A stretch of DNA of 64,000 nt from Nitrospirales bacterium (GTDB taxonomy: Bacteria > Nitrospirota > Nitrospiria > Nitrospirales > UBA8639): positions 2,464,001 to 2,528,000 of the forward strand of contig OY820905.2 of assembly GCA_963555755.3 (NCBI GenBank), read 5' to 3'. Every line of letters starts with the position of its first letter. Position 1 is the stretch's first letter. Below, one piece after another: positions 32,542 through 53,268 of the stretch. A model generated the notes under the pieces. That model did not search any database, was not told where the DNA came from, and saw only the letters and a program-made list of their open reading frames with translations. A program made the position numbers and the translations under genes.

Positions 32542-32622
32542 CGTGAAGCGTAATGTGTGAAGCGTGAAACGTAAAAACAAAAAGGGTTTCATTTCTGACT
32601 CATCACGGTTCACGCATTACGT
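32542..32622. repeat. Inverted heptamer cassette overlapping the hbd stop
   Basis: CGTGAAGCGTAATGTGTGAAGCGTGAAACGTAA ... CATCACGGTTCACGCATTACG. Confidence 0.8.
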
Positions 32623-33483: not shown

Positions 33484-33498
33484 GTCTCGTTTCCTTTG

Positions 33499-33620
33499 GG
33501 GAATGTTGAAAAAAGCCGCCAGCGGCGTTCTCGCCCTTTTGCCGTGCTCACGTACTGAGAGTACGCTCCGCGCGTCAAAAGGGCTGCGGCCTTGCTGGAC
33601 GAACTTTTTTGAACATTCCC
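33499..33620. mobile_element. MITE family C (TIR GGGAATGTTGAAAAA)
   Basis: Terminal IRs GGGAATGTTGAAAAAAG / CTTTTTTGAACATTCCC; core GCTCACGTAC..GAGTACGCTCCGCGCG; copies at 47330-47549, 55133-55297, 56607-56821. Confidence 0.85.
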
Positions 33621-33663
33621 TGTGAAGCGTGATGCGTAAAACCAAAAAATTCCTTGGCTTTCT

Positions 33664-34858: not shown

Positions 34859-34865
34859 AGTGGCT

Positions 34866-36023
34866 TCACCACTCCTGCGACTCGATAGATTGTTTGACCT
34901 TCTGCATGAATTGATCCGCCATGGCTCCATCAATCATCCGATGATCAAACGATAAACTCAGATAGGCCATGGGTCTGATTGCAATCGCATCATTGATGGC
35001 CACGGGTCGTTTTTGAATTGCGCCTACACCCAGGATGGCCGTTTCGGGTTGGTTGATGATGGGGGTCCCCAATAGACTTCCCGAGCTGCCATGATTGGTA
35101 ATGGTAAACGTGCCTCCCTGAACCTCATCCGGGATGAGTTGCTTGGATCGAGCGCGTTGAGCCAGATCGGCGATGTTCTCCCCTAGTTGAGACACGTCTT
35201 TTTGATCAGCATGACCGATCACGGGCACCAAGAGGCCATCGTCAAGGGCGACTGCAATCCCAATGTTGATATGATTCTTCATGACGATACCGGTATCACT
35301 CCATGACGAGTTCACCTGAGGGTAGGTTTTCAAGGCCTGTGCTACGGCTTGAACAACAAATGGTAAGTATGTGAGCTTGAGATTTTTTCGAGTGGGTTCG
35401 ATTACTGAAAAATCTACTTCAAAAACCGTGGTGACATGGGCGGCTGTCCGACGACTATCCATCATCCGCTCAGCGATGGTTTGCCGCATGGTCGTCAATG
35501 GAATCACGGTATCCTGGGAAGTATGATCTTGCCCAACGGACTGGCCTTTCCCATTGGCGGAAATCTCTGTGGTATCCTCTTTGGTGGCTATGAGCGCGCG
35601 AATATCTCGTATGGTGATACGTCCTTCTCCACCAGTTCCTTGTATTGTAGAAAGATCCACGCCATGTTCTTTGGCTAAGTGTTTGACGGCGGGAGAAAGA
35701 TGGAGATGGGGATCCGAGTCAGGTGGGATGATCTTCTCTGAATCCTTTTTCCCGTTGGACGTTGGTTGCGGAGCGACGTTGGAAGACTCGACGGCCAAAC
35801 GGGCAATGGGTGTTCCCACCGGAACCGTTTCCCCTTCCTGGATCAGAATTTCCATGAGTGATCCGCATTCAGGCGAGGGAATTTCGAGGGCCACTTTGTC
35901 CGTTTCCACCTCCAATAGGGCCTGATCCTTTTCCACATGGGCTCCTGTGGCCACGAGCCACTTCAAAATGGTGCCTTCGGCAGTGCTTTCACCTAATTGG
36001 GGCATGATAATATCTGTCGCCAT
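34866..36023 (-). CDS. bkdB: 2-oxoacid dehydrogenase E2 (dihydrolipoamide acyltransferase)
   Basis: Lipoyl motif ETDKV, subunit-binding GTGGEGRIT, catalytic DHRMIDG. Confidence 0.9.
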   Translation of the reverse strand: MATDIIMPQLGESTAEGTILKWLVATGAHVEKDQALLEVETDKVALEIPSPECGSLMEILIQEGETVPVGTPIARLAVESSNVAPQPTSNGKKDSEKIIPPDSDPHLHLSPAVKHLAKEHGVDLSTIQGTGGEGRITIRDIRALIATKEDTTEISANGKGQSVGQDHTSQDTVIPLTTMRQTIAERMMDSRRTAAHVTTVFEVDFSVIEPTRKNLKLTYLPFVVQAVAQALKTYPQVNSSWSDTGIVMKNHINIGIAVALDDGLLVPVIGHADQKDVSQLGENIADLAQRARSKQLIPDEVQGGTFTITNHGSSGSLLGTPIINQPETAILGVGAIQKRPVAINDAIAIRPMAYLSLSFDHRMIDGAMADQFMQKVKQSIESQEW

Positions 36024-36043
36024 GTCTGCCTCCGTCTTTCGGA

Positions 36044-36188
36044 CGTGATGCGTGATGCGTAATGCGTGACCCGTAAAGAATGAAAAACTTCTAGTCTTTT
36101 CGCATTACGCGTCACGCATTACGCCTCACGTTGTTTTCCTCTTGTCTTTACACTTCACGTATCACGCATCACGCATCACGCGTTACGT
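36044..36188. repeat. Extended inverted heptamer cassette (GCGTRAT family)
   Basis: CGTGATGCGTGATGCGTAATGCGTG followed by two blocks of CATYACG repeats. Confidence 0.85.
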
Positions 36189-36197
36189 TTTCCCCTC

Positions 36198-37187
36198 TCA
36201 ATACGTTGCCAATTGACGAGCCGCTCGAAGCACATCATCGACCTTTGGTAAAAAGAACTCTTCCAATGGAGGGCTATAGGGAACTGGTGTATCAGGAGCG
36301 GCGATTCGAAGAATGGGCCCATCCAGGTGATCGAAACAGTATTCACTGATCAACGCGGAGATTTCCGCCCCAATGCCTCCGGTTTTCGTGGCCTCATGTA
36401 AGACGATGACCTTGCTGGTTTTCCGAACCGACTCCAGAATGGCTTCTTGATCCAATGGCAAAAGCGTGCGCAGATCCACCACTTCGAGGTCGATAGCTTC
36501 TTTTTCCAAGATTTCCGCCGCTTCTAAAGCCAGAGGAACCATGGCGCCATAAGTGATGACAGATATGTCGCGACCCGTTCGTTTGACGTCGGCTTTCCCA
36601 ATAGGAACGATGTAGTCCTCTTCTGGCAGCACTTCCTTGGCACGACGATACAGGTATTTATGTTCAAAATAGATCACGGGATTGTCATCGCGAATGGCGG
36701 CCTTCAGCAGACCCTTGGCATCATAGGGTGTGGATGGGGCTACAAGTTTTAAGCCCGGCGTATGGAAGAACCAAGCTTCGGGACAGACTGAATGGAACGG
36801 TCCGCCATGGATTCCCCCTCCATAGGGCGCCCGAATGACCATCGGAACAGCAGCACCCCATCGATAATGATTCTTGGCGGCAACCTCGGTGATTTGATCA
36901 AACGCGCAGGAAATGAAATCAGCAAATTGCATCTCCACCACCGGACGCATGCCCATCATAGCTGCTCCAATCGCGGCTCCAACAAACCCTGATTCCGCGA
37001 GTGGCGTATCCAGCACGCGCCATTCACCGAACTTTTTTTGAAATCCCTCGGTGACACGAAACGCCCCGCCATAAGGGCCAATGTCTTCTCCAAGAAGAAA
37101 CACTCGCTCGTCTCGGCTCATTTCTTCGTCTAAGGCTTGTGAGATGGCTTCTAAATAGGTCACTTCCTGAGAGATCGCTGTGGTCAT
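36198..37187 (-). CDS. bkdA2: 2-oxoacid dehydrogenase E1 beta, branched-chain type
   Basis: LGEDIG, DTPLAESG, EMQFADF, GGPFHS, FEHKYLYR. Confidence 0.88.
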   Translation of the reverse strand: MTTAISQEVTYLEAISQALDEEMSRDERVFLLGEDIGPYGGAFRVTEGFQKKFGEWRVLDTPLAESGFVGAAIGAAMMGMRPVVEMQFADFISCAFDQITEVAAKNHYRWGAAVPMVIRAPYGGGIHGGPFHSVCPEAWFFHTPGLKLVAPSTPYDAKGLLKAAIRDDNPVIYFEHKYLYRRAKEVLPEEDYIVPIGKADVKRTGRDISVITYGAMVPLALEAAEILEKEAIDLEVVDLRTLLPLDQEAILESVRKTSKVIVLHEATKTGGIGAEISALISEYCFDHLDGPILRIAAPDTPVPYSPPLEEFFLPKVDDVLRAARQLATY

Positions 37188-38221
37188 ACATGTACCTCCT
37201 CAAGCGTCTCAGCATAGACGCCATCCAATGTCTCGGAGCCTTCAGGGAGAGGACTCTCTTCAGCGAACTCCACCGCGGTATCAATTTCCTTTTTCACTCG
37301 TTCTTGGATTTCCATCAATACTGATTCATCCGCGTAGCCCATGGTTTTCAGAGCATATTCAACTTTGAGAATGGGATCTCTGCGTTTCCATTCTTCCAAT
37401 AACTCACGAGGGACGTACTTGGCGGAATCGTGCTCTGCATGGCCATGCATTCGCATGGTTTTGCATTCAATGAAGGAAGGCCCGTGCCCTTCCCGCGCAC
37501 GTTTGATCACCCGCTGAGCTGTGACATACACCGCGGCGACGTCATTCCCATCGATAATTTCACTGGGGATGCCATAGGCCTTGGCCCGGTCTGCCACGTC
37601 GGGAGTTCCCATCTGAAGCTCAAGGGGCGTGGAGTAGGCATATTGGTTGTTGCAGCAGAAAAAGACCACGGGAAGTTTGCGAACCGCGGCGAAGTTGAGG
37701 GCTTCATGAAAGTCGCCACGGCTTGTTCCGCCATCTCCGGTATTCGCCACGACTACCTGAGATTGCCCTCGGATTTTAAACGCGAGAGCGGCTCCCGTGG
37801 CAAGAGGGAGGTTGTCAGCCAGATGGCTCACAAAGGCAAAAATTCCCCGTTTTAAATCACCCATATGCACGTTGGCATCTTTTCCTTTGGTGGGGCCTGT
37901 GCGTTTGCCCAGGTATTGAGCGAGGATTTCTTCAGGCTTCATGCCACGAATCAGAAACGCTCCCATGTCGCGATGCATAGGGGCGATGACATCGCCAGCC
38001 TCAAGCGCGTACGCGTACCCAACAGAAATGGCTTCCATTCCGTGGGAGGTGTACACTCCACCAACAATTCGACCTTGTCGGTAGAGTGCGGTCACTCGAT
38101 CTTCAAGGGTTCGTGTGAGGCAGAGGTAATAGTACAGTTGAAGGTAGTCAGCTTTTGACACCTTACTGAAGGGCTTCCTTCTGTCCTCCGGGCTGTCTCT
38201 TCGTTCTATGTCCATACTCAT
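37184..38221 (-). CDS. bkdA1: 2-oxoacid dehydrogenase E1 alpha, branched-chain type
   Basis: TPP motif GDGGTSRGDFHEALN...NNQYAYSTP; RMHGHAEHD. Confidence 0.88.
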   Translation of the reverse strand: MSMDIERRDSPEDRRKPFSKVSKADYLQLYYYLCLTRTLEDRVTALYRQGRIVGGVYTSHGMEAISVGYAYALEAGDVIAPMHRDMGAFLIRGMKPEEILAQYLGKRTGPTKGKDANVHMGDLKRGIFAFVSHLADNLPLATGAALAFKIRGQSQVVVANTGDGGTSRGDFHEALNFAAVRKLPVVFFCCNNQYAYSTPLELQMGTPDVADRAKAYGIPSEIIDGNDVAAVYVTAQRVIKRAREGHGPSFIECKTMRMHGHAEHDSAKYVPRELLEEWKRRDPILKVEYALKTMGYADESVLMEIQERVKKEIDTAVEFAEESPLPEGSETLDGVYAETLEEVHV

Positions 38222-38244
38222 TATTTGTACCTCCTTGCGGTGAT

Positions 38245-39954
38245 CTATCCCTTCACCACAGATTCCTTAAAACATTTGTCACGGTATGCACGTAATGTTT
38301 CTGATAGTCGCGATTTCAGTTCCAATCGTTTTGGTTTTCCCGTGGCGGTGTACGGGATATCGTCACCGAACAGAATGACTTTGGGACATTTGGCGAATGG
38401 GAGTCGGCTTTGGCAAAACTTCATGATGTCCGATTGAGATGGCGTGCTGGCTCCTTCGTGAATAACCACATATCCGGCTATTTCTTCGCCGTAAAAGCGG
38501 TTTTCGAATGGCACGGCCATCGCGAATTTGACTGAAGGATGTCCCCGGAGGACCTCATCAATTTCCAGCGGAGAGATATTCACCCCTCCTCGAATAATCA
38601 GTTCCTTGATCCTTCCCGAAATAAAGAAAAATGGACGGCCCTGTTGATCCCGCACAAAAAATCCTTCGTCCCCTGAACGGAACCAACCCCATTGAAACGC
38701 GGCCTCGTTTGCATCCGGGCGCTTGAGGTATCCAGAGCAGATCGTTTGGCCTCGAATGCAGATCTCACCTCTTGTTCCTTCCGGGACTGAGTGCCCTTGC
38801 CCATCCAGGATGGCCATTTCATTGTGGTGAATAGGCACGCCAATGGAGGGAAACTCATAGTGGGTCAGCCAATGATGGTGCTCCTCGGCTGATAAGTCAT
38901 TTGGTAAAAAACAGGAGTAACACGTGGTTTCTGACAGTCCATAGCCATGACGAATAGGAACCTGGAAGTGGTTTTCGAAGTGTGTCGCTGTTTCTTTTAA
39001 TAAGGGCCCTGCACCGCAAATCAGTCCGCGAAATCCATTCAATTGAAAAGGTGCATAATCTGTTCCGGATTCGAGTAAGAATTCCAACAGTGTGGGTACC
39101 ACACTGGCACACACCACATGTTCCTCTTGCACTCGTGACCAAAATACACCCGACTTGAATTTTTTGTTGAGGACGGCTTTCCCTCGGAAGTAGAACGGGG
39201 TGATCAGGGTGACGACGATACCATTCACGTGGTGAATCGGGAGGACGCACATGAGACAATCACCTTGCCCAAATCCGTGCCATTGGGTAATGGCGTCGGC
39301 ATCGATGAGAAGATTTTCCATGGTGAGTATGACGCCCTTTGGGGGGCCTGTTGTTCCGGAGGTGTAAATGATGAGCGCTTCATCCTCTATTCGGTCTTTC
39401 CAAGTCGGGGAAATAGGTTTCGCTTGAGATAGGTTCTGGGTTAGTGCACAACGTTGGGGATCATCCAAAACTAAGATGGCTTCCTGAAGGTATGGCAGTT
39501 CATCGATAAATTCCTGAATTTCATCGTAGGCATCACCCCAGCAAAACACGACCGACGCCTCTGAGTGTTCGAGGATATACCGTTTCTTGTCAGCGGATTC
39601 GGCAATGTTGATGGGGACGATAGTGGCACCTAAAGTCCAGACCGCAAAGTAAATCAAAACGGTTTGGTCATGATTGAATAACACCGTGGCAAGACGATCC
39701 CCTCGCTTGATGCTCAGTCGATCACGGAGAACCGAGGCCATTTTTGCTACTGCCTCGCCAAATTCCCCATAGGTGTAGGTTCGGTGGACCAACTGATCAT
39801 CGTCGTGGTAACTCAAAAATGTGTGTTGCGAAAGTTGTAGATCGTGAACTCGTTCGTAGAACAGACCAGAGAAAGAGGAAAAGGGAAACTGGTGAGGTGG
39901 CGTACAACTTTGATGCGCTCCCATGATGCTGTCCTCAATGGTGGTGGAGGTCAT
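38245..39954 (-). CDS. AMP-forming acyl-CoA synthetase / adenylate-forming enzyme
   Basis: YTSGTTGPPKG, GYGLSET, SGDEG, GRIKELIIRGG, TATGKP; start at 39954 coupled (TGATG) to the upstream gene. Confidence 0.9.
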   Translation of the reverse strand: MTSTTIEDSIMGAHQSCTPPHQFPFSSFSGLFYERVHDLQLSQHTFLSYHDDDQLVHRTYTYGEFGEAVAKMASVLRDRLSIKRGDRLATVLFNHDQTVLIYFAVWTLGATIVPINIAESADKKRYILEHSEASVVFCWGDAYDEIQEFIDELPYLQEAILVLDDPQRCALTQNLSQAKPISPTWKDRIEDEALIIYTSGTTGPPKGVILTMENLLIDADAITQWHGFGQGDCLMCVLPIHHVNGIVVTLITPFYFRGKAVLNKKFKSGVFWSRVQEEHVVCASVVPTLLEFLLESGTDYAPFQLNGFRGLICGAGPLLKETATHFENHFQVPIRHGYGLSETTCYSCFLPNDLSAEEHHHWLTHYEFPSIGVPIHHNEMAILDGQGHSVPEGTRGEICIRGQTICSGYLKRPDANEAAFQWGWFRSGDEGFFVRDQQGRPFFFISGRIKELIIRGGVNISPLEIDEVLRGHPSVKFAMAVPFENRFYGEEIAGYVVIHEGASTPSQSDIMKFCQSRLPFAKCPKVILFGDDIPYTATGKPKRLELKSRLSETLRAYRDKCFKESVVKG

Positions 39955-40718
39955 CACGCTCCCCCTCCAGTTGTAACGCCCATTTGAGTGGGAGAGGAAT
40001 TGCCGATTATCGTTTCCCGATTCCGTTCCAATCCCATCCAAAACCCTTCGAGATAATCCAACACTTTTTTGACTCCATGGGAAAAGTTGGTTTCCTCGTC
40101 GGCTGATAAGGCTCCATGAGAAGACGAGTGGTCTTCCATAGCGGAAACAGCTTTCTCCATGGCATCCTCGTGTGTCGATTCCAGTTCCCGATGAAAGGTG
40201 AAATATTCCATGTCCATATGAGGGTGCCGGGAGCGTTTGAGCACCAGCAGCCCGGGAAGCAAATGATCCCACATCGTAATGGCCATGTTTTCCAAACCGA
40301 ACGATGCGCCTAAGGCCTGTTCGTGGTTGCCGCTGCTGTACAGCATTTCCATTCCTTCGATGTAGGCTTTGGTCGATGGCATCATGGGTCGGGTGAGGGC
40401 TTCTTGGATGGAAATGCCGACTGACGTGAGAAACCTTCGATACAACAGCTCATGGCGATGTTCCGGTTTCCCATCGCCTAATTCGGAATAGAGCACTCGG
40501 GTGAGTTCTTCGGCAATGGATTCGTCCTCCGTGTTGACTAGTTGCGAAACGAGGATTTTGGGGAAAAACCGAGCGAAGCTATAAAACTCGATGGCAAAGT
40601 CTTGAAGTTCAGGATCGGATAATTCGCCCGTTTGGAAACGAATCAGGTACGGATTATTAATGGCTCCATGTTTAAGGACGAAGTTCCGCTTGTCCTGGTA
40701 AAGAACTGACATAGTCAC
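39954..40718 (-). CDS. Heme-oxygenase-like diiron (HDO; CADD/PqqC/TenA-fold) enzyme
   Basis: Putative ligand pattern SELG...HRH, GLE, YFTFHRELESTH; GGAGG RBS; first gene of the leftward operon. Confidence 0.8.
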   Translation of the reverse strand: MTMSVLYQDKRNFVLKHGAINNPYLIRFQTGELSDPELQDFAIEFYSFARFFPKILVSQLVNTEDESIAEELTRVLYSELGDGKPEHRHELLYRRFLTSVGISIQEALTRPMMPSTKAYIEGMEMLYSSGNHEQALGASFGLENMAITMWDHLLPGLLVLKRSRHPHMDMEYFTFHRELESTHEDAMEKAVSAMEDHSSSHGALSADEETNFSHGVKKVLDYLEGFWMGLERNRETIIGNSSPTQMGVTTGGGA

Positions 40719-40859
40719 CTCCTCGGTCCTGAAAAGATCCTTCTTTATTGGCTACTTTTTTGAGGGGCCTTCTTGCCTTGCCAAGAAAGCCCCTGAGAGC
40801 CACTTTGGTTCCAGGATGTCTTGAAAACTCGCCAAATTGGTATCCCTCACCCTAGGCCT

Positions 40860-41060
40860 TGCCATTATTTATAATTTCGGTTTTATTATATTAATAATAA
40901 AATTTAATTATCCTATCATTTTTTTCAATATAACGATCAATTATGCTATGTTTTATGACGTATATGCTTATTGTAAATAATTACTCTAAATTTAATGATT
41001 GCAATACCCGATAAAAAATAATAAACTTTTATTATTAATTATAATATATTATTATCATGA
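40860..41060. promoter_or_regulatory. Very AT-rich divergent control region with near-palindromes
   Basis: Between divergent operons; e.g. TTTTATTATATTAATAATAAAA at ~40881-40902. Confidence 0.6.
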
Positions 41061-41242
41061 GAGTCTACCAGTCGCAACAGTTTTTTTCTATGACAGATGG
41101 GTGAGGAATCGCCCGATACGGAAAGATAGGTGCCTCTACCCAAGGCAACCTAATCATGGATTGCACCAAACGTTCGGCAAAGGAAAAACAACACCCAGTG
41201 TGGAATGAGTTACGACAGAACACATAATGAGGAGGTAGGCGT

Positions 41243-41815
41243 ATGGCAGGCACACTCGGCATTGATCACATAACGCTTTGCGTCCCTGATCTTGGGGCGG
41301 CGGAGTTCCTATTCAATCAGGTGCTCGGGTTTCACACTATTTGGTCTGCTCAGGATGTAGGGACGGAAAAATCCAGCATGGATACTATTGTGGTCCAACG
41401 GGATAGCATCAAAGTCGCGTTGATGCAGGGCAATGACAAACAAGAAAAGTCACAAATCACAGACTTTGTTGAACGATATGGTCCGGGGGTTCAGCATGTG
41501 GCCATCGAAGTCGATGATATCGAGGCTGTGTCCAATGAGTGGGAGGACCAAGGGGTGAAATTTTCTGGGCCAATCAAGGAGGGGAAAGATGGTTTTGGGC
41601 CCCTGAGACAACGATTTACTTGTCCCCTCTTTCCCGGCAGTGGAGTGTTTTTTGAACTCACTCAACGTCAACATGGGGAAGAAACATCGCGGACGTTTGT
41701 CAAAGGAACCGTGGAGTCCTTGTATCGTGACATCGAAAAGCAACAATCAGCCGGAGTTGGAGATACCATCATTGACTATAGTCGCCAGCATCAATGCGTG
41801 GATAATGAGAAATAG
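41243..41815 (+). CDS. VOC-family protein resembling the C-terminal catalytic half of 4-hydroxyphenylpyruvate dioxygenase
   Basis: GIDH, SQITDFVERYGPGVQHVA, VFFELTQR, VESLYRDIEKQQ; upstream of hmgA. Confidence 0.75.
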   Translation: MAGTLGIDHITLCVPDLGAAEFLFNQVLGFHTIWSAQDVGTEKSSMDTIVVQRDSIKVALMQGNDKQEKSQITDFVERYGPGVQHVAIEVDDIEAVSNEWEDQGVKFSGPIKEGKDGFGPLRQRFTCPLFPGSGVFFELTQRQHGEETSRTFVKGTVESLYRDIEKQQSAGVGDTIIDYSRQHQCVDNEK

Positions 41816-41830
41816 GACCAGGAGAGGACT

Positions 41831-42967
41831 ATGTACCTTGTAAAACGGGGTTCCCCCCCGAATCAAGCTCATGTTGATATTCCTGATGGACTTCATGAGG
41901 AAGAACATGGCCGGATGGGGTTTACGGGTCGGGTGTCTCATCTGTACCGGTCCCATCCTCCAACCAATTGGATCCGAATTGATGGTCCCTGCCGCCCACG
42001 AGCCTTTTCATGCAGCGAACTTCTAACTCCCGATCTTCGCTCGGACGATGATCGTCCCTTGGAGATCCTCCGAAGTTCCGATGTCCGGGTTTTCATTTCC
42101 CGTCGAGCCCACACCATGCCCTTTTGGTTTCGCAATGCGGATGGAGACGAGCTGCATTTTATCCATAAAGGTCACGGTGGGTATGAAACCGATTATGGCT
42201 ATCTTTCCTATGGACCAGGTGATTACATCTTACTGCCTAAAGGAACCACGTATCGCATTGTGGTCGAAGAAGGCCCAGGCCTTTCGCTGATTGTTGAAAC
42301 GCCCGATCCCATTTCCCTTCCGGAGCGAGGCCTGCTTGGGCAACATGCCTTGTTTGATCCAGGAGTGCTCACTGTTCCTGAACCCTTCGCCACTAGCCAA
42401 ACCCAAGATGAATACGAGGTCAGAATTAAACGCGATGGCACGTATACCCGGGTCTTTTACGCTTTTAATCCTTTGGACGTCGTGGCGTGGAAAGGTGATT
42501 TGTGGCCCACCAAACTCAACATCAAAGATTTTCGGCCCGTCACCAGTCCAGGGTATCACCTTCCTCCCAGCGTTCATGCGACATTTCAGGCTGGCGGCCA
42601 CGCTGCTGGCCAAACTGCTGGCCAAGCTGCTGGAATGATCATTTCCACCTTTGCGCCAAGGCCACTGGAAACTGATCCTCTAGCGTTAAAAGTTCCTTTT
42701 TATCATCGGAATATCGATTACGATGAAGTGTTGTTTTATCACGAGGGAGACTTTTTTAGTCGATCCGGGATTAAGCCAGGAGCACTCACCCTCCATCCCC
42801 AGGGCATTCATCATGGGCCGCATCCTGCCGCCGTGGCTGCGAGCAAAACGAAGACACACACCAATGAAGTCGCGGTGATGGTGGAATCACGCCACCCATT
42901 TCAAGTGCTTCTTGAAGCGGAAACCGTTGAACTCAAAGATTACCCTCTAAGCTGGAGCCAGCCATGA
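41831..42967 (+). CDS. hmgA: Homogentisate 1,2-dioxygenase
   Basis: EEEHGRMGF, RNADGDE, PLDVVAWKG, HLPPSVH, PFYHRNIDYDEVLFYH, HPQGIHHGP. Confidence 0.92.
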   Translation: MYLVKRGSPPNQAHVDIPDGLHEEEHGRMGFTGRVSHLYRSHPPTNWIRIDGPCRPRAFSCSELLTPDLRSDDDRPLEILRSSDVRVFISRRAHTMPFWFRNADGDELHFIHKGHGGYETDYGYLSYGPGDYILLPKGTTYRIVVEEGPGLSLIVETPDPISLPERGLLGQHALFDPGVLTVPEPFATSQTQDEYEVRIKRDGTYTRVFYAFNPLDVVAWKGDLWPTKLNIKDFRPVTSPGYHLPPSVHATFQAGGHAAGQTAGQAAGMIISTFAPRPLETDPLALKVPFYHRNIDYDEVLFYHEGDFFSRSGIKPGALTLHPQGIHHGPHPAAVAASKTKTHTNEVAVMVESRHPFQVLLEAETVELKDYPLSWSQP

Positions 42968-43950
42968 AACTTGTCACCTTCCAAGTATCCACATCAGTCG
43001 GAAAGTTTGCCCGTGTTGGAGCGTGCTTCAATGACACCATTGTCGATTTAAACATGGCGTATACGCGCATGCTGTCCGATCAAAAAGAAGCTCAATCGTA
43101 CCGAATGGCCCAAGCTGGAGTCCCCTCCACCATGATGGAATTGCTGGAGGGAGGACATTCGGCAATGGATCGAGCACGCACGGCTTTTCGGTATGTCACC
43201 GGAGAAGGCGAAGCCCGGCAGGGGCCGGAGGGTGAAACGATTGTCTATCCGGTTCAAACTATCCGGCTGTTAGCTCCACTTAATCATGTGCCGATGCTCC
43301 GCGATTTCATTGCCTTTGAAGATCACATCGCGGCGACCTCAAAACGACGTGGCCAGCCTATCCCTCCCGAGTGGTATACCGCCCCGGTGTACTACAAAGG
43401 CAACCCGCACACCATCCTTGGCCCTGATGAGGAACTTCCATGGCCACTCAATACGGAAAAATTGGATTATGAGCTGGAGTTAGCCTGTGTGATCGGCCGA
43501 ACCGGCAGGGATATTCCAAAAGACGAAGCAGATCAGTATATCGCGGGGTACACCATCATGAACGATTTCAGCGCCCGCGATGTCCAATTTCAAGAAATGG
43601 CCTGTCGGTTAGGACCGGCGAAGGGAAAAGATTTTGGCACGGTCTTGGGGCCATGCCTCATCACCCCTGATGAAATCCCCAATATCAACGACCTCACCAT
43701 GATCGCACGGATCAATGGAGAAGTGTGGTCCGAGGGAAAATTTGGAAGCATCCATTGGTCATTCTCGCAGATGATTCAACATGTCTCGCGAGGCGAGACC
43801 ATATATCCGGGAGAGGTGTTTGGTTCTGGAACCGTCGGTGGAGGCTGTGGGCTGGAATTGAATCAATTCTTGAAACCTGGAGATCTTGTCGAGTTGGAGA
43901 TTCAACCAATTGGAATATTGCGAACTCCGGTGGCTATTGAAAAGACGTGA
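42964..43950 (+). CDS. fahA: Fumarylacetoacetate hydrolase family protein
   Basis: RDFIAFEDH, LDYELELA, NDFSARDVQ, KGKDF, GSGTVG. Confidence 0.88.
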   Translation: MKLVTFQVSTSVGKFARVGACFNDTIVDLNMAYTRMLSDQKEAQSYRMAQAGVPSTMMELLEGGHSAMDRARTAFRYVTGEGEARQGPEGETIVYPVQTIRLLAPLNHVPMLRDFIAFEDHIAATSKRRGQPIPPEWYTAPVYYKGNPHTILGPDEELPWPLNTEKLDYELELACVIGRTGRDIPKDEADQYIAGYTIMNDFSARDVQFQEMACRLGPAKGKDFGTVLGPCLITPDEIPNINDLTMIARINGEVWSEGKFGSIHWSFSQMIQHVSRGETIYPGEVFGSGTVGGGCGLELNQFLKPGDLVELEIQPIGILRTPVAIEKT

Positions 43951-44021
43951 TGCGTAATGCGTGAGACCTAATGCGTAACAAATCTTTATTTTTCGCTTCA
44001 CGCATTACGCTTCACGCTTCA
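43946..44021. repeat. Inverted heptamer cassette providing the fahA stop
   Basis: CGTGATGCGTAATGCGTGAG ... CTTCACGCATTACGCTTCACGCTTCAC. Confidence 0.85.
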
Positions 44022-44037
44022 CCGCCAAAAGGAGACC

Positions 44038-44805
44038 ATGAACGCCTTGGCTTCCCATGAAAAGAGACTGGCTCAAGTCATCGACGATCATCGATTACTG
44101 TATGCTGACCCCACGGTCGAGACGAAGCTCCGACAGCTGATTGATGTATCACCTCATTCTTTTTTAACCGAGAGTGAGCTGCTCGAGCTGTTTCGCCGGA
44201 CACAATCAATCTTTTTCAACACCCATCTCGAAGTTGCTTCTGGTCACCATACAGGTACGTATCTTCGGTTTGAATCGATTGCTCATTTTCCTGACCGGAT
44301 CGACATCATTGTGCAGGACATGGCCAATTGGGTGTCCAAGTTAGACAAGGATCAGAAAGTCCATGGCATCATGGTGCCCAATTCTGATGCGAGATTGTTG
44401 GCGGAAGGAATTGCAAACAGACTGAAAAAACAAGTTCCTCTACGTGTTGTCCCAGCCCCCTTTGATCCCACAACTGGAAGAATTGGGACCGATGTGCCAC
44501 CTGAAAAAATTCAAAAAGGTGAGCACTTCATCGCATTCAATGATGTCACCGCTCGTGGCAACTGCGTCAACAAGCTTGGCCAAATTGTCACCGATCGTGG
44601 GGGGACAGTCGTGGGCATGATGGTCTTCGCGAGACGAGACAGCGGTCAGTTTCCTTTCATGGATGAGCTTGCAGCTCAGTACCCCTTTTATTATAGCGTC
44701 GGTTTAGACATGCCTCAGTGGAAACAATCAGAATGCTCGTTGTGTCGCCTCGGTGAAGAATTGTTGAGTTGGCGTGATATGCCGTTGTTAAGACGTGAAG
44801 CGTAA
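44038..44805 (+). CDS. Type I phosphoribosyltransferase-fold protein (PyrE-like, atypical PRPP loop)
   Basis: HLEVASGHHTGTY, FIAFNDVTARGNC, C-terminal ECSLC. Confidence 0.7.
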   Translation: MNALASHEKRLAQVIDDHRLLYADPTVETKLRQLIDVSPHSFLTESELLELFRRTQSIFFNTHLEVASGHHTGTYLRFESIAHFPDRIDIIVQDMANWVSKLDKDQKVHGIMVPNSDARLLAEGIANRLKKQVPLRVVPAPFDPTTGRIGTDVPPEKIQKGEHFIAFNDVTARGNCVNKLGQIVTDRGGTVVGMMVFARRDSGQFPFMDELAAQYPFYYSVGLDMPQWKQSECSLCRLGEELLSWRDMPLLRREA

Positions 44806-44862
44806 GGCGTGAAGCGTTAAGATTAAGGAGAAGGTCTTTTCTTCTACGCATTACGGATCACG
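44794..44862. repeat. Inverted heptamer cassette providing the PRTase stop
   Basis: CGTGAAGCGTAAGGCGTGAAGCGTTAA ... TACGCATTACGGATCACG. Confidence 0.8.
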
Positions 44863-44924
44863 AGATAGAGGAGTACTCCAGCCATGAGCCTGACGACAAA
44901 CGGATCTCATCAAGAATTGAGATC

Positions 44925-45704: not shown

Positions 45705-45901
45705 TGACGCACCTATTCCTTCGGAGTTGATGTCGTGGATACTGGTTCGTGAGAGGGATGAGTGAGTGGTTCATGGGAGCAATGGGTTAAGAGTAATGGG
45801 TAATGGGTAAAAAAACAATCGTGATTCGTCATGCGCAAAGCGTAAGAAAAAGAGGGTTTTTATGCCTCACGCCTTACGAATCACGAAAAAAGAGGTTCTC
45901 A

Positions 45902-47317
45902 GTGAGCGAAGCATCTAACGGGTTGCTAACCAAAACTTTGGCGGCGTATGCCCATCGGCTGTCATTCAACAAGCTCCCAAGGGAGGTGGTCCATGAAGTG
46001 AAACGCCGGATCGTGGATAGTTTGGGCTGTGCCTATGGAGCGATGTCTGCGCCTCCCTGTCGAATGGCAAGGAGCTTAGCAGAAGCCGTGCCGCTGCCGA
46101 AGGGGGTGTCCGTGTGGGGAACTGAGGTTCGGACCACCCCCGAGTTAGCTACCTTCGCAAATGGGACTTTGGTTCGGTATTTGGATTGCAACGATACGTA
46201 CCTTTCGAAAGAACCTGCCCATCCCTCCGACAATATTCCAGCCTGCCTGGCCGTGGGAGAAATGTGTCATGCCTCGGGCCGATCCGTCATCGTGGCTATG
46301 GCCATTGCCTATGAACTCCAATGTCGGCTGTGTGATGCCGCCGCACTCCGGCCGCTTGGTTGGGATCATGTGACCTATGGAGCATTTTCCACCGCGTTGG
46401 CCGCGGCCAAGTTGTTGAAGCTGTCGCCAGAAGCCATGGCACAGGCACTCAGCATTGCAGGAGTCACCTCCGGGGCACTTCGGCAAACCCGCGTGGGAGA
46501 AGTGTCGTTGTGGAAAGCCTGTGCGTTTGCTAATGCAGCCAGGAACGGGGTATTTGCCACGCTGGCTGCTCGACGAGGCATGACAGGCCCGTTAGACGTA
46601 TTCGAAGGCGAGAAAGGATTTATGCGCGTCATTTCCGGCCCCTTGTCGCTACCAACATTAGGCGGCGAGCGAGGAGCCTCGTTTAAAATTTTGGACACCT
46701 ATATTAAGCCGTATCCCGTGGAATATCACGCGCAATCGGCAGTCGAAGCGGCGATGAAAATCCGGCACATGATCGTAGAGGCTGAAGGGCATTGTGACAT
46801 GTCTCAGATTAAGAACATTGTCGTCGAAAGCTTTGACGTCGCTATAGAGATTATCGGGCGGGATCCAGAAAAGTGGCGTCCCAAAACGAGAGAAACCGCT
46901 GATCATAGTCTTCCCTATTGCGTGGCTGTGGCGTTGAGTGATGGCCGGATCACGCCTCATTCGTTTTCGTCGAAACGACTCAACGATACAGCACTTCGTG
47001 CGCTGGTGAAAAAGGTAAAGGTCGTTGAACAGCCTGACTTCACGGCTTGGTATCCAGAGGCGATGCCAAATCGACTTCGAGTCACCACCACGCAAGGGAA
47101 AGACTACATGGCCCAGGTGGATCACCCCTTGGGGCATCCCAAACGGCCAATGTCTGACAGTGAAGTGGAAACGAAGTTCCATCAATTTGCTGACCAAAAA
47201 ATTGGGGCCTATCAAGCGAACCGCCTCATTGAGCGGGTCTGGGATCTTGAACACATCACTGATGTGTCCATGCTCATACGGACGTTTCCAGTTGTGGGGA
47301 ATATGAGGGTGGCGTGA
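45902..47317 (+). CDS. prpD: 2-methylcitrate dehydratase (MmgE/PrpD)
   Basis: VRYLDCNDTY, HPSDN, GWDH, SLWK, ETADHSLPY, GHP; start set at GTG 45902 (the upstream extension is a heptamer cassette, 45820-45885). Confidence 0.92.
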   Translation: MSEASNGLLTKTLAAYAHRLSFNKLPREVVHEVKRRIVDSLGCAYGAMSAPPCRMARSLAEAVPLPKGVSVWGTEVRTTPELATFANGTLVRYLDCNDTYLSKEPAHPSDNIPACLAVGEMCHASGRSVIVAMAIAYELQCRLCDAAALRPLGWDHVTYGAFSTALAAAKLLKLSPEAMAQALSIAGVTSGALRQTRVGEVSLWKACAFANAARNGVFATLAARRGMTGPLDVFEGEKGFMRVISGPLSLPTLGGERGASFKILDTYIKPYPVEYHAQSAVEAAMKIRHMIVEAEGHCDMSQIKNIVVESFDVAIEIIGRDPEKWRPKTRETADHSLPYCVAVALSDGRITPHSFSSKRLNDTALRALVKKVKVVEQPDFTAWYPEAMPNRLRVTTTQGKDYMAQVDHPLGHPKRPMSDSEVETKFHQFADQKIGAYQANRLIERVWDLEHITDVSMLIRTFPVVGNMRVA

Positions 47318-47329
47318 TTAACAGTGACG

Positions 47330-47549
47330 GGGAATGTTGAAAAAGGGCGCCAGCTGCGTTCTCGGCACTTTGTCGAACCTTCGAGCTCACAGACTTGCCG
47401 CTCTTCGCGGCGTTCGCGCTCACGTACTATGAGTACGCTCCGCGCGCCAAGCCTACTCCGCCGAAGTGGCTACGAAGGCCGGGAGTGCCTGCGGCTTTGC
47501 TGGACAGACCCTTCGGAAAGACTCAGGGCATGCTTTTTTGAACATTCCC
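47330..47549. mobile_element. MITE family C copy with nested palindromic inserts
   Basis: TIRs GGGAATGTTGAAAAA / TTTTTGAACATTCCC. Confidence 0.8.
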
Positions 47550-47595
47550 CAGCCCTCTGTATGTTTCACCGAATTGTCCAAGGGTAATCAGGAGG

Positions 47596-48525
47596 ATGAA
47601 AATTTTGAATTTTTCAACGTCCCCTGAAGTAAGTCGATCAGCAACGCTTCGGGCCTCACTTGAACAGGGCACGTTGGCCGTGCCAGGAGCATTTAACGCC
47701 TTTTCGGCGCGGCTGATTGAGGAGTCCGGGATGCCCGCCGTGTATGTCTCTGGCGCGGGGCTGTCCGCGAGCCGAGGGTTGCCGGATATTGGGTTATTGT
47801 CCTTGGAAGAAGTCACTGAAGAAACTCGGCGGATTTGTCAGGCAGTGCGAATCCCGGTGATTGTGGATGCTGATACCGGCTTTGGGAACGTTGAGCAGGT
47901 ACGTCGAACGGTTCAGGCATTGGAAGCCGCCGGGGTTTCCGGCATTCAGCTTGAAGACCAAGTATTTCCCAAGCGGTGTGGGCATCTTTCCGGGAAGCAA
48001 ATCGTGAACTGCCAGGAAATGTGCGACAAAATTGCAGCAGCAGTTTCCGCGAAACACGATCGCGATTTATTGATCATCGCAAGAACCGATGCGCGTGCTA
48101 TCGAAGGGATTGAGGGCGCCATTGAGCGGGCTAAGGCCTATCAGGCAGTTGGGGCGGATGCCATTTTTCCCGAGGCGCTTGAGTCGGTGGAAGAGTTTGA
48201 GCGGTTTGCCATGAGTTTCAGGATGGCCCGGATTCCGCTCATGGCGAACATGACGGAATGGGGAAAGACCCCTATGCTCTCCGTCCACGAATTTTCACAG
48301 TTGGGTTATCACATGGTGCTGTTTCCCATGACGATGTTTCGAATGATGGCAAAATCGATGGAAATGGGGCTCATGGAATTGCAGTCCCGTGGAACGCAAA
48401 AAGAGCTTCTCGATCTGATGCAGCCTCGAAGTGAGTTGTACAGGGTGCTTCGTTATGAAACTAATGACGAACTGAATGGAATAAAGGAAGAAAGGCAGGT
48501 GTTGCATGTTGACGACGAGTCCTAA
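47596..48525 (+). CDS. prpB: Methylisocitrate lyase
   Basis: GLPDIG, DADTGFG, EDQVFPKRCGH, ARTDA, ANMTEWGKTP. Confidence 0.93.
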   Translation: MKILNFSTSPEVSRSATLRASLEQGTLAVPGAFNAFSARLIEESGMPAVYVSGAGLSASRGLPDIGLLSLEEVTEETRRICQAVRIPVIVDADTGFGNVEQVRRTVQALEAAGVSGIQLEDQVFPKRCGHLSGKQIVNCQEMCDKIAAAVSAKHDRDLLIIARTDARAIEGIEGAIERAKAYQAVGADAIFPEALESVEEFERFAMSFRMARIPLMANMTEWGKTPMLSVHEFSQLGYHMVLFPMTMFRMMAKSMEMGLMELQSRGTQKELLDLMQPRSELYRVLRYETNDELNGIKEERQVLHVDDES

Positions 48526-49636
48526 CTCTGGCCTTGAAGGTATAGTGGCGGGCGAGAGCGCTATTTGCTTGATAGATGAAGAAAAAAGCGAGTTGCGGTA
48601 TCGAGGCTATTTAGCCGAAGAACTGTCTGAGCGCGCGACGTACGAAGAAGTGGCCTATTTGCTTCTCAAGGGAGAATTGCCTTCCTCTCAGGCTTTGGAA
48701 GTGTGGAAAGACGAATTGGTCCAGGCTTCCATCCTTCCCGCCCTCATATTCCAGTGGTCCCGGATGGTACCGCCTCACGCTCACCCTATGGACATCCTTC
48801 GCACGGGGGTATCCTTGCTGGGGATGGTCGACCTGGAGGCGACCAAATCATCCTATGAGGCGAATATTCAGAAAGCGATCAAACTGCTGGCTCAGACGCC
48901 TCTTCTGGTGGCCATCGCCTCGCGACCGAACGAGAAGAAGACGCACCCGTTTCAGTTAATCAGAAGTCAATCGTTCGCGGAAAACCTGTTGTATTTTCTC
49001 ACAGGAGATCGCGATGCCGTTCATGCCAAAGAATTGGACATTTCGCTGATTTTGTATGCCGAACATGAGTTGAATGCCTCCACGTTTGCCGCGCGTGTGA
49101 CAGCCTCTACGCTGGCTGATATGTACGGCGCGGTGATGTCGGGAATTGCCGCGCTCAAGGGCCCCTTGCATGGCGGGGCCAACGAAGCCGTCGCGCAGAT
49201 GCTGACGAGCATTGGCGAGCCGGAAAAAGCCAAGGATTGGGTGCTGTCATTGCTGAGAAACAAACAACGGATCATGGGATTTGGCCATCGTGTATTGAAA
49301 CATGGTGATCCCCGCTCTGATGTCATGAAGCGACGAGCCAAGGCGCTGAGTGGCCAACTCGGAAACTGGCAGTGGTATGAGATGGCCGAACGCATTGACC
49401 AGACGATGCACGAGGAAAAAGGGATTCCTCCCAATCTCGACTTTTATACCGCCGTGGTCTATTTGTTATTGAGGATTCCCATCCCAGCCTATACCCCGAT
49501 TTTTGTGGCCAGCCGAATGTCAGGATGGTGCGCACACATTATTGAGCAACAAATGAACAACCGCATCATCCGTCCTCGTGCAACATACACGGGGCCTCCG
49601 AAACGGGAATTCCTTCCGATCTCGTATCGTACTTAA
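48506..49636 (+). CDS. prpC: 2-methylcitrate/citrate synthase
   Basis: AEHELNASTF, GPLHGGAN, MGFGHRV, PNLDF; operonic with prpD and prpB. Confidence 0.9.
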   Translation: MLTTSPNSGLEGIVAGESAICLIDEEKSELRYRGYLAEELSERATYEEVAYLLLKGELPSSQALEVWKDELVQASILPALIFQWSRMVPPHAHPMDILRTGVSLLGMVDLEATKSSYEANIQKAIKLLAQTPLLVAIASRPNEKKTHPFQLIRSQSFAENLLYFLTGDRDAVHAKELDISLILYAEHELNASTFAARVTASTLADMYGAVMSGIAALKGPLHGGANEAVAQMLTSIGEPEKAKDWVLSLLRNKQRIMGFGHRVLKHGDPRSDVMKRRAKALSGQLGNWQWYEMAERIDQTMHEEKGIPPNLDFYTAVVYLLLRIPIPAYTPIFVASRMSGWCAHIIEQQMNNRIIRPRATYTGPPKREFLPISYRT

Positions 49637-52311: not shown

Positions 52312-53268
52312 TCAAGAGTGCCCTTTTCTTCGTCGATTGAGGCGAGCTCGGAGGGATCGTTCAGCTTTATATTCGGTGACGTAGCGAGTCTCAAAGAGGG
52401 CCACGGGATTGAGATCTCGCACATGGTTTTCATCCCAACTAATATGCAATTGATCAATCATGGTGATGGGTGGCGTGGCGCCATCATCACCTAACGCATG
52501 TTCCACATACGACCGGGAGAACAGTATAATTTCGTTGTCAAAAAGGGCCGAATTGATTTGGCCTTTGACCCCTTGTTTTTTGTATTCGGCCGCCAGTCGT
52601 TGGAAGGTCAGCGTTTGACCGAGTTCCTCGCGAAAGGCAAAAAACGTTGAGACGCCCACCAACTTCTGGTCGTTGAGGACTTGGAGAGCTTCAGCGATTT
52701 TTTCTTCTTTGGTGAGCTGATCTTTCGTGAAAATAAACAATCGGCGAATCTTCACCCCTCGTTTGATGGCAAATTTACTGCCCATCAGATAATTGGGAAA
52801 CAGGGGCCCCTCTCTTCTCCAGACTTTCCAGCGCTCTATAATGGAATCTACTGAACTCTCCGTGGTCCTCAGGATTCGGTCCATTTCCGTATAGGCGATA
52901 TTCCCTTCATAGGACAGCATTTGGGATTCTAATTGCCGAAGGTCGTGGCCAATATCTTGGACCTTTTGCGGAATATACCGAGGGTGTTCAGGAACATTAA
53001 TCAGGACATCCACGGCTGTCAGAGCCATTTCCCAATGTTCTTTTTCTCCGGTTGGGGCTTTGTCCCTTTGGGCGACAAGGAGGAGTTCGACAGGATTCTT
53101 CTCGAGTAAGTTCGCAATTCTAATGCAGACAGCGGTATTGGGAACTTTCTTGCCACGACGAAACCAGTTGGCCTCGGGTTGGCTCACCTTGAGTTTTTTC
53201 GCAAGGGTGTAGTCACTGGTGACCCCATATTTTTTTTTGACTTGTTCAATGTAACGCGGAATGCCCAT
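52312..53268 (-). CDS. XRE/phage-repressor-like HTH protein with a large uncharacterised C-terminal domain
   Basis: TSDYTLAKKLKVSQPEANWFRRG HTH; GGAGGAG RBS. Confidence 0.75.
   Translation of the reverse strand: MGIPRYIEQVKKKYGVTSDYTLAKKLKVSQPEANWFRRGKKVPNTAVCIRIANLLEKNPVELLLVAQRDKAPTGEKEHWEMALTAVDVLINVPEHPRYIPQKVQDIGHDLRQLESQMLSYEGNIAYTEMDRILRTTESSVDSIIERWKVWRREGPLFPNYLMGSKFAIKRGVKIRRLFIFTKDQLTKEEKIAEALQVLNDQKLVGVSTFFAFREELGQTLTFQRLAAEYKKQGVKGQINSALFDNEIILFSRSYVEHALGDDGATPPITMIDQLHISWDENHVRDLNPVALFETRYVTEYKAERSLRARLNRRRKGHS

Follow-up and report, generated by a model that had tools for sequence, protein, structure and literature searches.

A diiron HDO-fold protein linked to homogentisate genes in Nitrospirales as a candidate pterin-independent phenylalanine 4-hydroxylase

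A minus-strand gene at positions 39954..40712 of a 64,000-nucleotide stretch of Nitrospirales DNA (contig OY820905.2, positions 2,464,001 to 2,528,000; hereafter the window) encodes an uncharacterized 29-kDa member of the HDO superfamily with a predicted two-iron active site, which we propose as a candidate phenylalanine 4-hydroxylase. The conversion of phenylalanine to tyrosine is pterin chemistry, and PhhA, the pterin-dependent phenylalanine 4-hydroxylase, stands upstream of HPPD-HmgA-FAH. Judging from gene context and distribution, the window protein (HDO below) probably functions in phenylalanine/tyrosine catabolism; that it is specifically a pterin-independent diiron phenylalanine 4-hydroxylase strikes us as an evenly balanced proposition. 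We lean slightly toward the broader view that the family, in nitrite-oxidizing Nitrospirales and acid-loving Thermoplasmatales, may provide a second, pterin-free phenylalanine route into the homogentisate pathway. It would then extend the HDOs to primary catabolism and to hydroxylation of a free aromatic ring, in each case for the first time.

The HDO gene probably starts at ATG 40712 (252 aa) rather than at GTG 40718 (254 aa; residue numbers here are counted from this GTG), because GGAGG lies 5 nt upstream of the ATG and the closest homologs are 252 aa long. The initial annotation had recognized both an HDO fold and an E..H/E/H..E..H ligand pattern, and both hold up. The predicted diiron ligands, E79, H89, E143, H176, E180, and H183, present the E-H-E-H-(D/E)-H dimetal motif that the available portion of PMC11363339 gives for the superfamily. 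All but H176 are invariant in 20/20 aligned rows, H176 is found in at least 90% of them, and conservation of each of the six reaches 99% or more both in 75 archaeal rows and in 40 Nitrospirales rows. The protein scores 85.8 bits against PF14518 (Haem_oxygenas_2; gathering cut-off, 28.9), and its AlphaFold2 model (pLDDT 94) has a helical heme-oxygenase-like fold whose best matches by Foldseek and VIA-align are BesC, CADD, and HrmI (Z ∼25, rmsd 2.0 to 2.6, >210 residues aligned). An ESM Atlas search returned unnamed HDO and VOC clusters and nothing else, a plasmid search gave matches of 25 to 28% only, and a metagenome scan yielded three short loci with uninformative neighbors. A contig from a public run spans 33778-45000 of the window with 0 differences and identical gene order.

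BesC (4-chloro-allylglycine synthase, PDB 7TWA) is the top PDB sequence match (E 6e-12) and ties for the best fold match (Z 25.6, rmsd 2.2, 214 aligned, 21% identity); like HDO, it is a stand-alone protein with the six-ligand motif. However, HDO scores 51.2 against NF042919, for which the cut-off is 500, and the substrate that BesC cleaves is 4-Cl-lysine, its gene belonging to a biosynthetic cluster with lysine halogenase and alkyne genes, whereas the neighbors of HDO are catabolic, and a scan of 28 window proteins turned up no halogenase; we therefore reject a BesC assignment. The lysine N-oxygenase HrmI (PDB 9N1X, 9NH9) also ties for the best fold (Z 25.7, rmsd 2.6, 224 aligned) and acts on a free amino acid, as proposed for HDO, but it shares only 14% identity, carries ∼115 extra N-terminal residues, and belongs to secondary metabolism.

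HDO is divergent from a half-size HPPD (41243..41815, plus strand, 190 aa), its constant head-to-head neighbor, across an AT-rich intergenic region (40713..41242, 530 nt, 36% GC); the corresponding spacer measures 213 to 319 nt in 24 relatives. We found no conserved operator across 25 such intergenic regions, and a promoter and terminator scan gave counts no higher than chance. The half-size protein is a stand-alone C-terminal (catalytic) HPPD domain that has one VOC domain rather than two and scores 93 bits against TIGR01263 (cut-off, 277). Its H9, H85, and E138, which we take to be the His-His-Glu iron ligands, align invariantly with two full-length archaeal HPPDs. At several positions of the C-terminal domain, it departs from full-length HPPDs. 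Next on the plus strand come a short-type homogentisate 1,2-dioxygenase (HmgA; 41831..42967, 378 aa), a fumarylacetoacetate hydrolase (FAH) family protein (42964..43950), and a phosphoribosyltransferase-fold (PRT) protein with no assigned role (44038..44805), which stands behind FAH in 24/24 related loci. Short hppD-fah-hmgA operons often lack maleylacetoacetate isomerase, and on that ground we set aside the idea that HDO replaces this enzyme.

On the HDO side, minus-strand genes for a 2-oxoacid dehydrogenase (34866..38221; E1a, 37184-38221; E1b, 36198-37187; E2, 34866-36023) appear to encode the branched-chain type, based on context and the Nitrospira moscoviensis annotation bkdAA/AB. The initial annotation had placed HDO at the head of this operon. 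The three genes do lie downstream here, but they follow the PRT gene, not HDO, in all 20 Nitrospiraceae loci. A putative HTH regulator (52312..53268, minus strand; weak HTH_3 match, E 0.026) has counterparts on the HDO arm in 20/20 of those loci.

A PhhA-like linkage to hppD-hmgA-fahA recurs in distant genomes. The head-to-head arrangement of HDO with half-size HPPD, followed by HmgA-FAH, is present in 20/20 Nitrospiraceae and 4/4 loci of the window's own family (24/24 Nitrospirales loci), and HDO occurs in 44 of 151 Nitrospirales genomes, all 44 with HmgA, with two further genomes having HmgA only. Because the Pfam model lacked the sensitivity to detect short-type HmgA (19/44), protein queries were used instead; the alignment for later HmgA searches had four rows, three of them distinct sequences. 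Thermoplasmatales homologs of HDO are 42 to 51% identical, and 169 Thermoplasmatales genomes divide into 96 with HDO and HmgA, 10 with HDO only, 4 with HmgA only, and 59 with neither. A single motif designed to exclude Nitrospirales gave 111 genome matches, a biased sample, of which the 80 loci with flanks were used for neighborhood counts and the other 31 left out. Among these 80 (nearly all archaeal, mostly Thermoplasmatales), HmgA lies within 10 kb of HDO in 36; HDO is directly beside HmgA or HPPD in 10, and HDO, HPPD, FAH, and HmgA stand in line in 2.

A sister clade of HDO is 22% identical (hhalign, 98.8%) and falls in the same 98% SH-aLRT group of a quick tree, in which it and a CADD-like row sit on long branches. 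In genomes G296 and G754, an independently acquired HPPD-FAH-HmgA-flavin reductase-thiolase-AACS cluster ends with the sister HDO; four genomes of the same genus had neither the sister HDO nor HmgA. The linkage of HDO to homogentisate genes rests on about three independent events.

We propose HDO as the phenylalanine-to-tyrosine enzyme because of this linkage to HPPD-HmgA-FAH and because PhhA was not found: PF00351 was found in none of 80 HDO genomes and not in the window's own genome, and it does not match HDO, which differs from PhhA, an unrelated fold with mononuclear iron and pterin. PhhA occurs in 4 of 261 Thermoplasmatota, all four with HmgA and none with an HDO of the Nitrospirales-archaeal clade (clade 1). 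As a sign of mutual exclusivity, these counts (0/80 and 0/4) are weak and confounded by kinship, because PhhA is rare across both lineages. HmgA occurs in 32 Thermoplasmatota, of which 17 carry no PhhA and no clade-1 HDO, and of 5 of those 17 checked for the sister clade, 2 were positive and 3 negative. Since some HmgA genomes thus have none of the three, HmgA does not demand a phenylalanine hydroxylase. Conversely, full HmgA was absent from 10/10 tested incomplete MAGs of non-Thermoplasmatales archaea with a 44 to 56% identical HDO, one of which gave a partial match (6.6e-11). Both observations, together with the failure to see a conserved reductase, weaken the phenylalanine-hydroxylase reading.

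Proteome data from N. moscoviensis place the genes in a starvation response. We infer that NITMOv2_0065 (UniProt A0A0K2G7E3) is the HDO ortholog from gene order, length, and mass relative to the related locus L045, not from sequence. This 243-aa, 27.975-kDa protein, listed as uncharacterized, was 144-fold up on nitrite starvation, a partly imputed value, with spectra of 20/24/28 versus 0/0/0 (PMC9381531 Table S1), and NITMOv2_0064, the neighboring 194-aa HPPD, was 62-fold up. Induction extended to the branched-chain dehydrogenase (∼10-fold), tryptophanase (12.6-fold), and the CoA ligase discussed below (23.8-fold) (PMC9381531). Because the whole island is induced, the proteome cannot pin HDO to its aromatic branch. 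One RNA run gave scattered, low-depth contigs, none of them over HDO, an uninformative result.

Under the proposed mechanism, the divergent HDO/HPPD promoter would fire in both directions during energy starvation. Diferrous HDO would bind phenylalanine and, as in other HDOs, activate O2 via a peroxo-diferric species, hydroxylating C4 to yield tyrosine with two electrons per turnover from a putative donor. Housekeeping aminotransferases or an amino-acid dehydrogenase would then form 4-hydroxyphenylpyruvate, which half-size HPPD, HmgA, and FAH would convert to fumarate and acetoacetate, and the ligase may activate propionate and/or acetoacetate in place of PrpE, AACS, or SCOT. A transaminase, initially thought to be absent, is encoded in the genome (IlvE, above its equivalog cut-off; TIGR01122, 450 versus 246 bits), as is a Leu/Phe/Val-dehydrogenase-type gene.

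If the proposal is true, a nonhomologous diiron enzyme in place of PhhA would extend the HDO superfamily to arene hydroxylation and primary catabolism, close a gap in this pathway for two distant lineages, and put a pterin-free biocatalyst on offer. It would also give a function to a protein that N. moscoviensis shows only when starved of nitrite and bear on how nitrite oxidizers survive without nitrite. The roughly one dozen validated HDOs covered in the available portion of PMC13108848 are all biosynthetic, and none hydroxylates a free arene. Our literature search, which covered few subscription journals, found nothing linking an HDO to phenylalanine/tyrosine catabolism.

The synteny and profile evidence would be identical if HDO hydroxylated an arylacetate rather than phenylalanine. 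HPPD-type enzymes can make 2-hydroxyphenylacetate from phenylpyruvate or leak 4-hydroxyphenylacetate, either of which HDO might convert to homogentisate; phenol rings are hydroxylated more easily, and the substrate of the half-size HPPD may differ, given its changed C-terminal-domain positions. Carboxylate ligation to Fe1 is seen in UndA (available portion of PMC13108848). We nevertheless consider this reading unlikely, as the HPPDs that accompany HDO in archaea are of the usual full-length kind and score above the cut-off for TIGR01263, and with these no second hydroxylase is needed for tyrosine.

It also seems unlikely, on the neighborhood evidence, that HDO acts on tryptophan or another amino acid as a mere member of a general amino-acid catabolic island. 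At least 3 of the 20 loci (L035, L037, and L045) do carry a tryptophanase on the HDO arm, the window contains an IDO-family gene (20144-21349), and some HDO genomes are without HmgA. Moreover, AetD and SktA are tryptophan-acting HDOs (available portion of PMC11869266), and the top structural matches BesC and HrmI act on lysine (available portion of PMC13108848). However, AetD ranks low structurally (Z 17.8 versus ∼25 for the top matches), and among the frequent archaeal neighbors of HDO, read by eye, the recurrent catabolic genes are those for homogentisate, with no tryptophanase-like cluster.

A different chemistry, in which HDO is a reductant-free four-electron dioxygenase that converts phenylalanine and O2 to 4-hydroxyphenylpyruvate and NH3 in a single step, would replace PhhA plus a transaminase and feed HPPD directly. 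Its atoms and electrons balance arithmetically, and we found no reductase among the conserved neighbors of clade-1 HDO in Nitrospiraceae and archaeal loci, but the sister clade adjoins a flavin-reductase-like gene, and we know of no precedent for ring hydroxylation coupled to deamination. FlcD is a reductant-free four-electron HDO (available portion of PMC11363339). The aminotransferases IlvE and AspC of N. moscoviensis do not share in the induction of the island (1.09- and 1.27-fold), as this reading would have it, but are abundant in both conditions (PMC9381531). On balance, we judge the four-electron reaction improbable.

Directly downstream of HDO lies a gene for an ANL-family acyl-CoA ligase (38245..39954, minus strand, 569 aa; a 675-aa ORF from GTG 40272 is a mechanical extension only). 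The TGATG stop/start overlap reported at 39952..39956 is real when the minus strand is read directly (HDO TGA, 39956-39954; ligase ATG, 39954-39952), and GGAGG inside the HDO tail lies 9 nt upstream of the ligase ATG. The overlap is not special, because -1 or -4 overlaps occur at 5 of 17 junctions of the same minus-strand run, and it is lineage specific: in all four other genomes in which HDO adjoins the ligase, the two genes do not overlap and stand 84 nt or more apart. Ligase orthologs (59 to 66% identical) mostly close a prpD-prpB-prpC operon: of 20 related loci, 16 have the ortholog behind these methylcitrate genes and 4 have it behind HDO; the 16 include one genome of the window's own family. 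In the window, prpD-prpB-prpC lie at 45803..49636 on the plus strand, and the ligase is not in that position.

The usual place of prpE is beside the prp genes, and the ligase orthologs occupy that slot. Neither TIGR02316 (PrpE) nor TIGR01217 (acetoacetate-CoA ligase) is among the ligase's best 25 of 105 NCBIfam matches, and none of these 25 attains its cut-off. The best PDB match is the oxalate-CoA ligase AAE3 (5IE0, E 1.4e-63), but the oxalate-specific residues Ser289 and His319 (available portion of PMC8905533) are replaced by Ala and Cys, ruling out an oxalyl-CoA synthetase. No PrpE, AACS, or SCOT was found in this genome, whose other ANL enzymes, read by eye, are Acs-, Aas-, and benzoate-ligase-like only. 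The likely substrate of the ligase is a small acid, either or both of propionate and acetoacetate.

The initial annotation had treated HDO and the ligase as a dedicated pair, turning an amino acid into an acid and then a CoA ester for the branched-chain dehydrogenase pathway, or else forming a small biosynthetic module. Besides the overlap and the adjacency in four other family genomes, the pair has in its favor that 38 of 151 Nitrospirales genomes carry both (6 have HDO only and 5 the ligase only), that both are induced on starvation, and that some ligase follows HDO in 14 of 20 Nitrospiraceae loci. The last, however, is a different AMP-binding ligase (25 to 28% identical) heading a beta-oxidation cassette; no ligase of any type follows HDO in the other six, and the ortholog itself lies ∼21 to 23 kb away. 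Across the 44 HDO genomes, HDO tracks HmgA (44/44) better than the ligase (38/44), and archaeal HDO loci have no ligase ortholog, with any AMP-binding match in 1 of 80 flanked loci (24% identical). The presence of IlvE removes the gap that the pair was meant to fill, and an island wholly catabolic in content and induced on starvation in N. moscoviensis does not support a biosynthetic module. The initial annotation had named separation of the two genes in relatives as an outcome against its proposal, and that is largely what the related loci show. Given the prp-linked orthologs, the missing overlap in relatives, and the archaeal loci, we reject a conserved pair and regard a dedicated function for it as having little chance of being correct. 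The neighbor is probably a CoA ligase for small acids that is unrelated to HDO and came to lie next to it through a rearrangement in one lineage, and it is probably not its partner; as a product of local rearrangement, the overlap carries little weight. An oxidative entry route into amino-acid catabolism remains the best class of explanation, with the ligase as partner and the transaminase gap removed from it.

The initial annotation had also named clustering with CADD as an outcome against its proposal. Placing HDO among the self-sacrificing p-aminobenzoate synthases of the CADD type is highly improbable and rejected here: CtCADD/NePabS (PDB 1RCW, 8VA9, 9PJ4) share its fold, size, and 3-His/3-carboxylate ligand set, CADD is level with the other top fold matches (Z 25.3, rmsd 2.0, 213 aligned), and TIGR04305 matches at E 5.5e-15, but that match scores 55.5 against a cut-off of 200, the CADD sacrificial residues Tyr27 and Lys152 (available portion of PMC13108848) align with Leu25 and Leu153 of HDO (phmmer against 1RCW), and the host genome has PabC above its cut-off (TIGR03461, 179.7 versus 176.85). 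As a separate observation, a PabB-like ORF, recognized by eye, precedes PabC in this genome.

The constant partner of the heme-oxygenase-fold predicted diiron protein (HDO; 39954 to 40712, minus strand) is the homogentisate pathway. Among 151 Nitrospirales genomes, HmgA was found in all 44 that encode the HDO and alone in 2. A profile search recovered HDO relatives at 40 to 50% identity, and a motif built from these gave 111 matches across the collection of genomes, almost all of them archaeal. Of the 80 matches with flanking sequence, on which the neighborhood counts rest, 36 had HmgA and 30 had full-length HPPD no more than 10 kb away, with direct adjacency in 10 and the order HDO>HPPD>FAH>HmgA in 2. 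The 169 Thermoplasmatales genomes searched divided into those with both HDO and HmgA (96), HDO only (10), HmgA only (4), and neither (59); in ten further archaeal genomes HDO was present and a full HmgA was not found. G296, one of the two Nitrospirales with HmgA alone, has an unrelated cluster (HPPD-FAH-HmgA-flavin reductase-thiolase-acetoacetate ligase). This cluster and that of G754 both end at an HDO of a sister clade, which was found in Nitrospinaceae, some Nitrospirales, Melainabacteria, and Thermoplasmatota. Four genomes of the genus concerned yielded neither HmgA nor the sister-clade HDO, and one fragmentary genome yielded a partial HDO only. We count about three independent HDO-homogentisate linkage events. 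Sister-clade proteins (L222:4918-5739, plus strand; L254, L255, L261, and L266) have no Pfam match.

The metal-ligand pattern proposed from the initial reading is present (E79, H89, E143, H176, E180, and H183, numbered from the GTG at 40718), and by domain, predicted fold, and the E-H-E-H-(D/E)-H dimetal motif given for HDOs in PMC11363339, the protein is assigned to the HDO superfamily. Structure prediction gave the HDO fold with high confidence, and the matches to BesC, CADD, and HrmI were level at a Z of about 25. The protein falls outside CADD, BesC, and PhhA (the pterin-dependent phenylalanine 4-hydroxylase); it probably functions as PhhA does. It scored under the CADD cut-off, with leucines in place of the sacrificial Tyr27 and Lys152 of CADD, and under the BesC cut-off as well. 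A quick tree grouped the Nitrospirales, archaeal, and sister-clade sequences together (SH-aLRT, 98), with 23 distant HDOs and one CADD-like row outside this group. SktA is described in PMC11869266, and the accessible portion of the review PMC13108848 lists no arene-hydroxylating or catabolic enzyme among the HDOs it covers. A literature search, with most subscription journals outside its reach, returned no paper tying an HDO to phenylalanine or tyrosine catabolism. A second PF14518 protein in the window (55627 to 56442, minus strand; 271 amino acids; E value, 1.7e-18) has no pairwise similarity to the HDO. A third HDO-like gene (28% identical), outside the window (G000:C1:2435820-2436542, minus strand), lies immediately upstream of a 497-amino-acid methyltransferase-like ORF; 16 of 22 family genomes have matches resembling it, at 27 to 32%. 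By eye, four distant HDO domains (P0165, P0167, P0174, and P0176) are joined to protease-like or GAF-like regions in proteins of 427 to 787 amino acids.

Phenylalanine 4-hydroxylation is the oxygen-requiring step without a gene in HDO organisms. A search for PF00351, the PhhA family, which detected its control, gave no match in 80 HDO genomes or in the genome that contains the window. Only 4 of 261 Thermoplasmatota encode PhhA, all with HmgA and all without the clade of HDOs shared by Nitrospirales and archaea (clade 1); the one of these searched for the sister clade also lacked it. Neither PhhA nor a clade 1 HDO was present in 17 of 32 HmgA-positive Thermoplasmatota genomes, and the sister clade was present in 2 and absent from 3 of the 5 of these that were checked. 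We saw no conserved reductase beside clade 1 HDOs. As a sign that HDO replaces PhhA, this distribution of genes is suggestive, not decisive. We consider it probable that the HDO has a role in phenylalanine/tyrosine catabolism, and put the chances that it is the phenylalanine 4-hydroxylase itself at about even.

Published proteomics supports a catabolic starvation role for the HDO, coregulated with HPPD, and names no substrate. Because gene order, lengths, and masses in Nitrospira moscoviensis agree gene for gene with locus L045, NITMOv2_0065 is treated as the HDO and NITMOv2_0044 as the ligase on those grounds rather than by sequence. In the rows available from Table S1 of PMC9381531, nitrite starvation raised NITMOv2_0064, a 194-amino-acid putative HPPD, 62-fold and the uncharacterized 243-amino-acid NITMOv2_0065 144-fold, a value flagged as imputed (spectra, 20/24/28 versus 0/0/0). 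Among these rows, the genes on either side of the divergent promoter were the most induced of the island; increases were also listed for NITMOv2_0063 (4.3-fold), 0062 (3.6-fold), 0061 (6.1-fold), 0066 (3.5-fold), tryptophanase (12.6-fold), BCKDH E1 (about 10-fold), and the 572-amino-acid ligase 0044 (23.8-fold), and IlvE and AspC were detected and flat (PMC9381531).

The initial annotation suggested that the HDO and the adjacent ANL-family acyl-CoA ligase (569 amino acids; 38245 to 39954, minus strand) may be a coupled entry route replacing an absent transaminase. The TGATG stop/start overlap is indeed present at 39952 to 39956, and across the 151 genomes HDO and ligase co-occur in 38, with HDO only in 6 and ligase only in 5. 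In relatives, the true ligase orthologue (59 to 66% identity) was compared across 20 loci from four families. It comes after the prp genes in 16 of them, one of which is in a genome of the same family as the window. In only 4, which all belong to a single genus, does it come after HDO, and there 84 nt or more separate the two genes. All 20 Nitrospiraceae loci have HDO facing the half-size HPPD and directed away from the BCKDH genes, within an order HPPD-HmgA-FAH-PRT-E1a-E1b-E2; HDO is followed by another ligase (25 to 28% identical) leading a beta-oxidation cassette in 14 and by the candidate regulator in 6. Given these arrangements, the window order would most simply reflect a rearrangement in which the HPPD/HDO block was flipped with respect to E1a and the ligase was carried in. 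Co-occurrence is shared island membership, the pair itself is local, and a dedicated HDO-ligase pair is very improbable. Nor is a transaminase missing, since the genome encodes IlvE above the cut-off and a 345-amino-acid amino-acid dehydrogenase. The sequence features first reported stand, and their interpretation is supported in part.

The best solved relative of the window ligase is oxalate-CoA ligase; the oxalate-specific Ser289 and His319 (PMC8905533) are Ala and Cys here. Acetoacetate is released by both FAH and HMG-CoA lyase, and propionyl-CoA is consumed by the prp genes. Because SCOT was not found in the genome, its remaining ANL enzymes resemble (by eye) Acs, Aas, and a benzoate-type ligase, and the independent homogentisate clusters of G296 and L105 include a true acetoacetate-CoA ligase, this genomic context suggests that the window ligase likely activates propionate, acetoacetate, or both.

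Judged by the names of its homologues, the window belongs to Nitrospirales. The amino-acid catabolic island spans ∼20.1 to 53.3 kb. Its minus strand encodes HDO, ligase, E1a, E1b, E2, thiolase, 3-hydroxyacyl-CoA dehydrogenase, methylmalonyl-CoA mutase parts, acyl-CoA dehydrogenase, carboxyltransferase, hydratase, HMG-CoA lyase, MeaB, LipA, and, last of the run, an indoleamine 2,3-dioxygenase-family gene (20144 to 21349; PF01231; E value, 1e-90). This last gene was not seen in the related loci compared, whose extent may stop short of its position. Out of a divergent AT-rich gap, the plus strand encodes half-size HPPD, HmgA, FAH, a phosphoribosyltransferase-fold gene, and prpDBC. The half-size HPPD is a stand-alone C-terminal domain of 190 amino acids (41243 to 41815), found in 24 of 24 related loci and possibly a minimal HPPD. 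The phosphoribosyltransferase-fold protein (44038 to 44805; weak PyrE match) always follows FAH (24/24 loci), and its counterpart rose 6-fold in the N. moscoviensis starvation rows. A candidate regulator of the island is a 318-amino-acid protein (52312 to 53268, minus strand), which combines a weak N-terminal HTH with an unassigned C-terminal domain and is located on the HDO arm of all 20 Nitrospiraceae loci. Some relatives have a tryptophanase on that arm (L035:3576-4976, L037, and L045:6994-8400).

A frameshift in a seven-A run near 34225 to 34231 breaks the thiolase (33664 to 34933, minus strand) in two, whereas in relatives it is one ORF of 393 to 544 amino acids; the frameshift is probably real in the window strain, since contigs from two sequencing runs (X1 and X5) are identical to the window there. 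Local duplications were read by eye in two places: the 3' end of prpC recurs, nearly unchanged, behind a PIN-like gene (50792 to 51184, plus strand), and two 181-amino-acid ORFs (7185 to 7730 and 11558 to 12103, minus strand) are near-identical. Short repeated elements at about 33500 to 33620, 36035 to 36200, 43980 to 44020, and 44810 to 44850, where contig depth is doubled or very high and many joints link one element to another, are read as a REP- or MITE-like family; they fall in part within the extended 5' portion of the mechanically called ORF at 32617 to 33645.
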